Part shown: one piece after another, positions 34,548-34,665 of the stretch
Layout of the letters: each line of letters begins with the position of its first letter
Position numbering within the stretch: the first letter of the stretch is position 1
Assembly: GCF_050920415.1 (NCBI RefSeq)
Contig: NZ_CP169309.1
Direction: 5' to 3' (one strand)
DNA from: Escherichia coli
GTDB lineage: Bacteria; Pseudomonadota; Gammaproteobacteria; Enterobacterales; Enterobacteriaceae
Length of the DNA stretch: 64,000 nt
Notes under the pieces: model-generated
What the model saw: the letters and a program-made list of their open reading frames with translations, nothing else
Databases searched by the model: none
Told to the model about the DNA's origin: nothing
Program-made: the position numbers and the translations under genes

Positions 34548-34665
34548 AGTTGCAGGAAGTTGGTGACGCAGCGAATCCCCAGGAGCGTACACGAGTACGT
34601 GACTGGGGTGAGCGAGGAAAACCAACGCACATGCAGCTTGAAGTATGACGGGTATTACGAGGTAA
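34548..34665. repeat. ERIC / IRU (enterobacterial repetitive intergenic consensus) element
   Basis: gcgaatccccaggagcgtacacgagtacgtgactggggtgagcg closely resembles the ERIC core and the ERIC2 primer sequence AAGTAAGTGACTGGGGTGAGCG. Confidence 0.7.

Follow-up and report, generated by a model that had tools for sequence, protein, structure and literature searches.

In this Escherichia coli strain, the tail of the colanic acid polymerase gene wcaD is interrupted in its third-last codon by a full-length copy of the ERIC repeat, which supplies the end of the WcaD protein together with its stop codon and is probably a tolerated, near-neutral passenger of the operon, one that would change the balance between upstream and downstream gene expression modestly at most. 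ERIC (enterobacterial repetitive intergenic consensus, also called IRU or RU-1) is a long-known repeat family, reportedly described by Sharples and Lloyd in 1990 and by Hulton et al. in 1991, and the wcaD/wcaE copy is an ordinary, new locus-level member of it. The window, by which we mean the whole 64,000-nt stretch of DNA that was analysed, carries an E. coli-type colanic acid (wca) cluster on its + strand, in the order wza (at 26873), wzb, wzc, wcaA, wcaB, wcaC, wcaD, wcaE, wcaF, gmd, fcl ... wcaM, galF. The relevant features are listed below.

26656-26694, + strand: JUMPstart element, 5' of wza
32131-33348, + strand: wcaC
33323-34543, + strand: wcaD, colanic acid polymerase (NCBIfam TIGR04010 equivalog, E = 1.4e-262)
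34528-34530, no strand: left TAT direct repeat, candidate TA target-site duplication (alignment of empty and filled sites)
34530-34656, + strand: full-length ERIC/IRU/RU-1, 127 bp in consensus coordinates
34541-34543, + strand: wcaD stop TAA, from the ERIC left arm (CCT AAA TAA; sequence and translation)
34562-34606, + strand: 45-bp segment missing in the short allele, with GGTGA repeats at 34562-34566 and 34607-34611
34573-34614, + strand: ERIC core with central inverted repeat, 34577-34590 / 34595-34608 (exact pattern match)
34653-34655, no strand: right TAT direct repeat (same alignment)
34656-34669, + strand: displaced old wcaD tail (T ACG AGG TAA), turned 5' leader of wcaE (alignment with the empty site)
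34670-35416, + strand: wcaE, glycosyltransferase (NCBIfam TIGR04009 equivalog, E = 1.1e-154)
50940-50978, + strand: second JUMPstart, upstream of the gene cluster after galF, presumably O-antigen

On its sequence, the repeat at the wcaD/wcaE junction is a full-length ERIC/IRU element and more than a core alone. The published E. coli RU-1 127-mer (PMC2759123, Table 1a), taken as its reverse complement, aligns with 34530-34655 without gaps and with 103 of 126 positions identical (81.7%); Salmonella SeRU-1 is 78.6% identical to the element. With the 141-nt region as query, all but one of the 5,426 complete E. coli genomes (5,425) yielded ERIC copies, at a median of 9 places per genome, and these copies align over query positions 1-126, which correspond to 34530-34655 in the window. 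The alignment of the window copy with 53 others has a mean column identity of 87%, and the 42-nt degenerate core pattern has an exact match at 34573-34614, against a chance expectation of 0 and none in 100 shuffles of the window. The element shares with the family its multicopy, dispersed occurrence in enterobacteria and its presumably transcribed extragenic location, here within the wza-wcaM gene string, except for the first 14 nt, which are coding. That we are dealing instead with a chance palindrome, or with another repeat family such as REP/BIME, has next to no probability and was rejected: nothing more than a generic palindromic look speaks for it, and it is contradicted by the gap-free full-length alignment to the reference and to the 53 other copies, by the absence of the core from the shuffles, and by the length of 127 bp, which fits ERIC as opposed to the 35-40 bp of REP units.

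The preliminary description had placed an ERIC/IRU repeat at 34548-34665, between wcaD and wcaE, in a 126-bp spacer containing the ERIC core. The family, the junction, the 126-bp spacer and the exact core at 34573-34614 all stand. The coordinates have to be corrected, as the start was 18 nt late and the end 9 nt too far, and the element is not strictly intergenic, since the last 14 nt of wcaD, stop codon included, are ERIC sequence. Poor alignment to the consensus beyond the short core, which that description had named as grounds for giving up the assignment, is not what is observed: the alignment runs from end to end and is gap-free over 126 nt.

In the Rfam search, no family reached its gathering score in the ERIC region. 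With relaxed thresholds, a sub-threshold match to RF02818 (V_AS5, Vibrio RNA AS5) was seen at 34529-34652 on the + strand (E = 0.0005), covering the full length of the model (positions 1-129); at 28.2 bits against a gathering score of 96 bits, the window ERIC is not a V_AS5 member, and the Vibrio RNA family may itself have been built on ERIC-like sequence. Elsewhere in the window, Rfam families account for two other observations. An algC RNA motif (RF02929, 78 bits, 41285-41334, + strand) lies inside the colanic acid cluster, between a manC-like ORF that ends at 41237 and the start of a phosphomannomutase-like ORF (41276-42709). On the - strand, 9855-10653 holds three Sib RNA genes in tandem (RF00113, 138-140 bits each) at intervals of 328 nt; K-12 has two Sib genes, sibA and sibB, at the corresponding locus, and the three genes here may reflect variation in copy number of this Sib/Ibs type I toxin-antitoxin array.

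The insertion is delimited by alignment with empty-site genomes (K-12-type, O157:H7, N3 and GPEC856). With a slash marking the insertion point, the empty site reads ...GCGTTAAATAT/TACGAGGTAA(GAATAA)GAACATG and the filled site reads ...AAATAT[ACACCC...GGGTAT]TACGAGGTAAGAACATG, so that AAATAT/TACGAGG in the former corresponds to AAATAT[ACACCC...GGGTAT]TACGAGG in the latter, with perfect alignment on both sides. The net insert is 125 bp (34531-34655), with up to 3 nt of play in its placement owing to the TAT at either end; these flanks fit a duplication of either TA or AT, with the same 3-nt ambiguity of position. Duplication of a TA target has been reported for ERIC (PMC2759123), and the insertion point here is apparently a TA in the third-last codon of wcaD. 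WcaD of K-12 and O157 ends with AAT ATT ACG AGG TAA (NITR and stop), and that of the window with AAT ATA CAC CCT AAA TAA (...ALNIHPK and stop); three residues, HPK, replace two, TR, and the ERIC-derived part of the gene is 34530-34543. As the NCBIfam WcaD profile covers the protein up to the last three residues, only the extreme tail of WcaD has been changed. The bounds of wcaD are identical in the RefSeq annotation of the same allele in another genome record (L001).

The old end of wcaD has become leader sequence, and the wcaE Shine-Dalgarno GAGG (34659-34662, 7 nt before the ATG) has moved with it 125 bp downstream. From the wcaD stop to the wcaE start there are 4-10 nt in empty alleles and 126 nt in the window. 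Empty alleles differ among themselves by a 6-bp tandem duplication, TAAGAA being present once or twice (window 34663-34669; L007 402-411; L004 402-405), which results in wcaD-wcaE spacers of 4 or 10 nt; all ERIC-bearing alleles have a single TAAGAA, and some of them have also lost one G (TAA-AACATG). The only other long intercistronic gap in the cluster is that of ~177 nt between wzc and wcaA (30627-30803).

The RNA of 34530-34670 (141 nt) is predicted to fold into one long imperfect hairpin of -57.7 kcal/mol, compared to a shuffle mean of -32.0 (z = -7.75), in agreement with the stable hairpin that had been anticipated from the sequence. The last 17 nt of this fold, including the Shine-Dalgarno, are unpaired; in a longer context, the unpaired probability of the Shine-Dalgarno/tail is ~0.5. 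The consensus hairpin of the 54 aligned ERIC copies, which come from many genera, consists of 36 pairs, 18 of them with compensatory changes, and the stability of the window copy is average for the family (rank 21 of 54; mean -56.4, sd 5.2 kcal/mol). The GTTGGT/ACCAAC stem does pair better in the window copy than in its closest relatives; special stabilisation of the window hairpin was nevertheless dropped as a proposition, given the average overall stability and the weaker fold of a second E. coli allele (AF46-type), which carries pair-breaking SNPs and reaches -51.1 kcal/mol. When the 5' arm is held unpaired as a mimic of a terminating ribosome, the predicted energy goes from -65.7 to -45.0 kcal/mol; the lower stem is lost and the core hairpin persists. 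Scans of 34530-34669 detected no sigma-70-like promoter and no hairpin-plus-T-run terminator, the stem being followed by TATTACGAGG, and promoter or terminator function of the element was set aside on that ground. In the operon sense, stops occur after 2-3 codons in two of the three frames of the element; read in reverse, the element has two fully open frames and a third that is open for 39 codons. A degenerate 5-nt motif, GU/AUU at 34652-34656, seen by eye, is the sole hint of RNase E here.

Querying the junction in 5,426 complete E. coli genomes gave the full element in 94 genomes, an 82-bp form of it without the 45-bp core segment in 629, and an empty site in ~4,000, with ~700 genomes having no match to the junction query. 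Either ERIC form is thus present in 723 genomes, 629 of which (87%) have the core-deleted one, and ~85% of the junction-matching genomes (~4,000 of 4,726) are without the element. A presence/absence polymorphism among strains had been foreseen, and it exists in three states rather than two. The deletion in the short allele is bounded by the GGTGA direct repeats and is seen with two variants of its junction, GTT/GGTGA and GTG/GGTGA; its product folds weakly (-26.5 kcal/mol, z = -2.8). The short allele is found, for example, in strain SaT040, an ST131 strain. Carriers occupy at least three flanking haplotypes, represented by the window and CV839-06; by AF46 and Ecol_316, with three SNPs inside the ERIC; and by SaT040. 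The flanks of AF46 have 2 differences per 300 bp with the empty K-12 and O157 alleles and 9 per 300 bp with the window. Since the carriers span at least three haplotypes, and since the AF46 flanks are nearer to empty alleles, the flanking comparison indicates that the polymorphism is old and has been reshuffled by recombination, and that it is not a recent clonal insertion.

Both wcaD and wcaE are intact in all carriers examined, as are the genes examined from wcaE to fcl. The wcaB gene of Ecol_316, a strain with the complete ERIC, is annotated as a pseudogene with a frameshift (L121 146-633), so that this strain may already be compromised in colanic acid synthesis. One more genome (L117; WcaD P0119, 88% identical to the window WcaD) was considered as a further independent lineage and rejected, its junction being identical to the E. 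coli short allele. Repeating the search for WcaD homologues yielded practically the same proteins.

ERICs are found in the wcaD tail of two other lineages. In an Enterobacter-like taxon (L116), WcaD shares 86% identity with that of E. coli and 98.5% with that of a relative whose site is empty (L123). The ERIC-family element in the wcaD tail of L116, which has the same arms and a different centre, is located at exactly the same nucleotide as the E. coli insertion; the site, AAATAT/.../AACGGG against AAATAT/AACCGG when empty, fits a clean TA duplication. In Enterobacter mori, an ERIC belonging to the same subfamily as the window copy occupies the TA in the last sense codon, 9 nt 3' of the E. coli site, as comparison with an empty site from the E. 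cloacae complex shows. Orthology of this element with the E. coli one was considered and rejected, because the TA revealed by the Enterobacter empty site is another one, at a distance of 9 nt. All three insertions have the same orientation, and WcaD ends with ...PK and stop in each. To judge by these junctions, the copies of L116 and E. mori look independently acquired, i.e., the insertion appears to be recurrent. From the last conserved codon of wcaD to the Shine-Dalgarno of wcaE there are only about three TA dinucleotides, and an ERIC in the present orientation adds 2-4 residues to WcaD, versus ~40 or more in the opposite one. Recurrence is not strong evidence of selection, because the permissive target is tiny and the opposite orientation would extend a membrane polymerase by ~40 residues. 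A survey of 65 ERIC copies by ORF ends gave 26 against 22, that is, no general bias, and a general rule by which ERICs near stop codons prefer the present orientation is unsupported.

Other ERICs occur in the same clusters of related genomes. L116 has a second, canonical one (3627-3755) that is oriented in the same way and fills the gap from the wcaE stop at 3618 to wcaF at 3766; the close relative L123 does not have it, its spacer there being 21 nt. Pseudocitrobacter vendiensis (L075) has no ERIC at wcaD-wcaE and carries one further down the cluster (1132-1258), which overlaps the 3' end of an ORF on the - strand (1194-1733), just after an fcl-like gene.

The window copy resembles other members of the family in its 127-bp length, core, terminal arms, long hairpin and multicopy distribution, and its ends are compatible with the TA type. 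It differs from the usual ERIC in its core variant, CGTAC...GTACG instead of CTTAC...GTAAG, and in the GACGCAGCG / GAGGAAA signature, and, unlike a typical ERIC, it overlaps a stop codon and is not purely intergenic. The core variant is common in Citrobacter, Enterobacter and Kluyvera. In species-representative genomes it was found at 107 loci, mostly in Citrobacter, Kluyvera, Pseudocitrobacter, Enterobacter and Klebsiella; most belong to Enterobacteriaceae (at least 12 genera), and a few come from MAGs that were probably mis-binned. Over the full length, the best matches reach 90-94% identity (for example C. portucalensis, 93.7%; C. amalonaticus, 92.9%), and records of the plasmid database include ~91-92% identical copies in Klebsiella and Salmonella. 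Other E. coli copies are at best ~80-83% identical to the window copy among the matches listed, and in none of the 5,426 E. coli genomes does the best match fall at 90-95% identity. On the side of the searches, ERIC-like sequence occurs in 325 plasmid-database records, some of them chromosome-sized, and a 14-kb Klebsiella pneumoniae plasmid (NZ_CP093469.1, 5212-5334) has an ERIC 91% identical to the window copy. At least 13 ERIC core matches on many contigs come from a MAG labelled 'uncultured Opitutales' (BRZ_FD__bin43; among L023-L034, L049, L082), with single core matches in MAGs labelled Bacteroidia and Lentisphaerae; these are probably mis-binned or mislabelled enterobacterial contigs.

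Because E. coli-like sequence extends on either side as far as the junction itself, we favour transposition as the origin of the insertion, the source being an ERIC copy absent from present-day E. coli genomes, and regard import of a foreign wca segment as less likely. It is rather unlikely that the element arrived by recombination with DNA of another genus, Citrobacter- or Enterobacter-like, and not by transposition of an E. coli-resident ERIC. Such recombination would account for the closest copies (90-94%) being in Citrobacter, Enterobacter, Klebsiella and Salmonella records, for the ~80-83% ceiling among the listed E. coli matches with the 90-95% band empty, and for the ERICs of Enterobacter lineages in the same gene tail. 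However, the left 50 nt are identical to K-12, another TA is occupied in E. mori, the element that shares the TA in the Enterobacter-like taxon differs in its centre, and transposition from a transient foreign or plasmid-borne copy fits equally well, subfamily copies being known from plasmid records.

Several known systems help to frame the likely effect of the element. Modulation of mRNA by ERICs was reportedly described in Yersinia by De Gregorio et al. in 2005. According to three papers (PMC2229807, PMC3184786, PMC10969869), Yersinia ERICs co-transcribed with genes lower the upstream transcript in an orientation- and translation-dependent manner, which is attributed to RNase E; of the two orientation classes (A and B), B is the destabilising one. 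Like the regulatory ERICs of Yersinia, the window copy lies within an operon, at an apparent TA target, and overlaps or adjoins the stop codon of the gene before it, so that terminating ribosomes would interfere with folding of the hairpin. The RNase E site of the window copy is a candidate. Delihas (2007) described ERIC/RU-1 fused to the 3' ends of genes, mostly in the opposite orientation and adding ~35-40 residues from the long ERIC ORF (PMC2759123). The window copy is similar to these fusions in that ERIC provides the C-terminal coding sequence and stop of the host gene, and dissimilar in that early stops in two of three frames have limited the change to HPK for TR. Internally deleted, short forms of ERIC are known in Y. 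pestis, where the range is 69-127 bp (PMC2267715). The E. coli 82-bp allele likewise keeps both arms without the centre; in contrast to other short ERICs, the parental full-length allele and the GGTGA-bounded deleted one are both seen at a single locus.

As a tolerated, near-neutral passenger, the element would be co-transcribed within the long wza-wcaM mRNA, as the operon context and JUMPstart/RfaH suggest, and its transcript is predicted to fold into the long imperfect hairpin. The main consequence would then be the conversion of a tightly coupled wcaD stop and wcaE start into a structured, untranslated gap of 126 nt, with wcaE translation probably initiating de novo rather than by coupling. 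A ribosome terminating at 34541-34543 would melt the lower stem, to judge by the loss of ~20 kcal/mol in the constrained fold, and the 3' arm might then be exposed to RNase E, as proposed for the Yersinia ERICs. By this analogy, an effect of the ERIC on the stability of the flanking mRNA, which the preliminary description had raised together with mRNA processing, is plausible. The passenger reading is preferred because the element is missing from the majority of E. coli genomes and its core has been deleted in the majority of carriers; the points counted for near-neutrality are the loss of the core in 629 of 723, the average hairpin (rank 21 of 54) and the weaker AF46-type allele (-51.1 kcal/mol). 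Against it count the wcaD-tail ERICs in three lineages in the same orientation, which could point to selection rather than to neutrality.

The hairpin may be conceived as a selected post-transcriptional regulator, which by ribosome-dependent unfolding and RNase E cleavage would set the ratio of wza-wcaD (export, polymerase) to wcaE-wcaM (glycosyltransferase, sugar-nucleotide) products. The recurrence of wcaD-tail ERICs in one orientation in E. coli, in L116 at the same nucleotide and in E. mori 9 nt 3', the age of the E. coli polymorphism and its spread across haplotypes, the better paired GTTGGT/ACCAAC stem and the precedent of Yersinia (PMC2229807) are in line with such a role. We nonetheless consider it unlikely: 87% of carriers have deleted the core, leaving a remnant of -26.5 kcal/mol (z = -2.8), ~85% of junction-matching genomes are empty, the stability of the hairpin is average for the family, and the recurrence would be expected anyway from the few TAs and the addition of 2-4 residues in one orientation against ~40+ in the other, with no orientation bias in the 65-copy survey (26 vs 22). 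More elaborate, and quite improbable in our estimate, is the proposal that the wcaD tail/wcaE leader is a recurrent ERIC landing site, at which a copy of a non-E. coli subfamily has been kept as an old and possibly balanced polymorphism, with a ribosome-melted hairpin setting the ratio of polymerase and export functions to glycosyltransferase and precursor functions.

The probability is very low that the hairpin works as an intra-operon terminator or attenuator, splitting the colanic acid operon after wcaD. A very stable hairpin in an untranslated gap of 126 nt would suit that function, but no T-run is found 3' of the stem, where the sequence runs on with GGGTATTACGAGG, and the terminator scan found nothing within the element. 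Moreover, wcaE-wcaM are required for colanic acid synthesis, and wcaE-fcl are intact in carriers. JUMPstart/ops elements recruit RfaH, which results in antitermination, i.e., in termination-resistant transcription; the upstream JUMPstart implies such transcription here, and this is relevant to passage through the ERIC hairpin.

No paper describing an ERIC at wcaD/wcaE turned up when full texts were searched for ERIC in combination with wcaD or colanic acid. The locus does not change the current understanding of ERICs. For annotation, the label "intergenic" conceals a rewritten WcaD C-terminus and the probable loss of wcaD-wcaE translational coupling. For strain typing, the junction offers a simple marker with three states (empty, 82 bp, 127 bp); missing from the 82-bp allele is the core segment to which primer ERIC1R anneals, and the ERIC2 site is kept only partly. 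Effects of ERICs on mRNA processing have so far been argued mainly from Yersinia, and the natural, isogenic-like alleles of this junction (empty, full and core-deleted) would make a convenient test of the effect of the ERIC hairpin on mRNA processing in E. coli.
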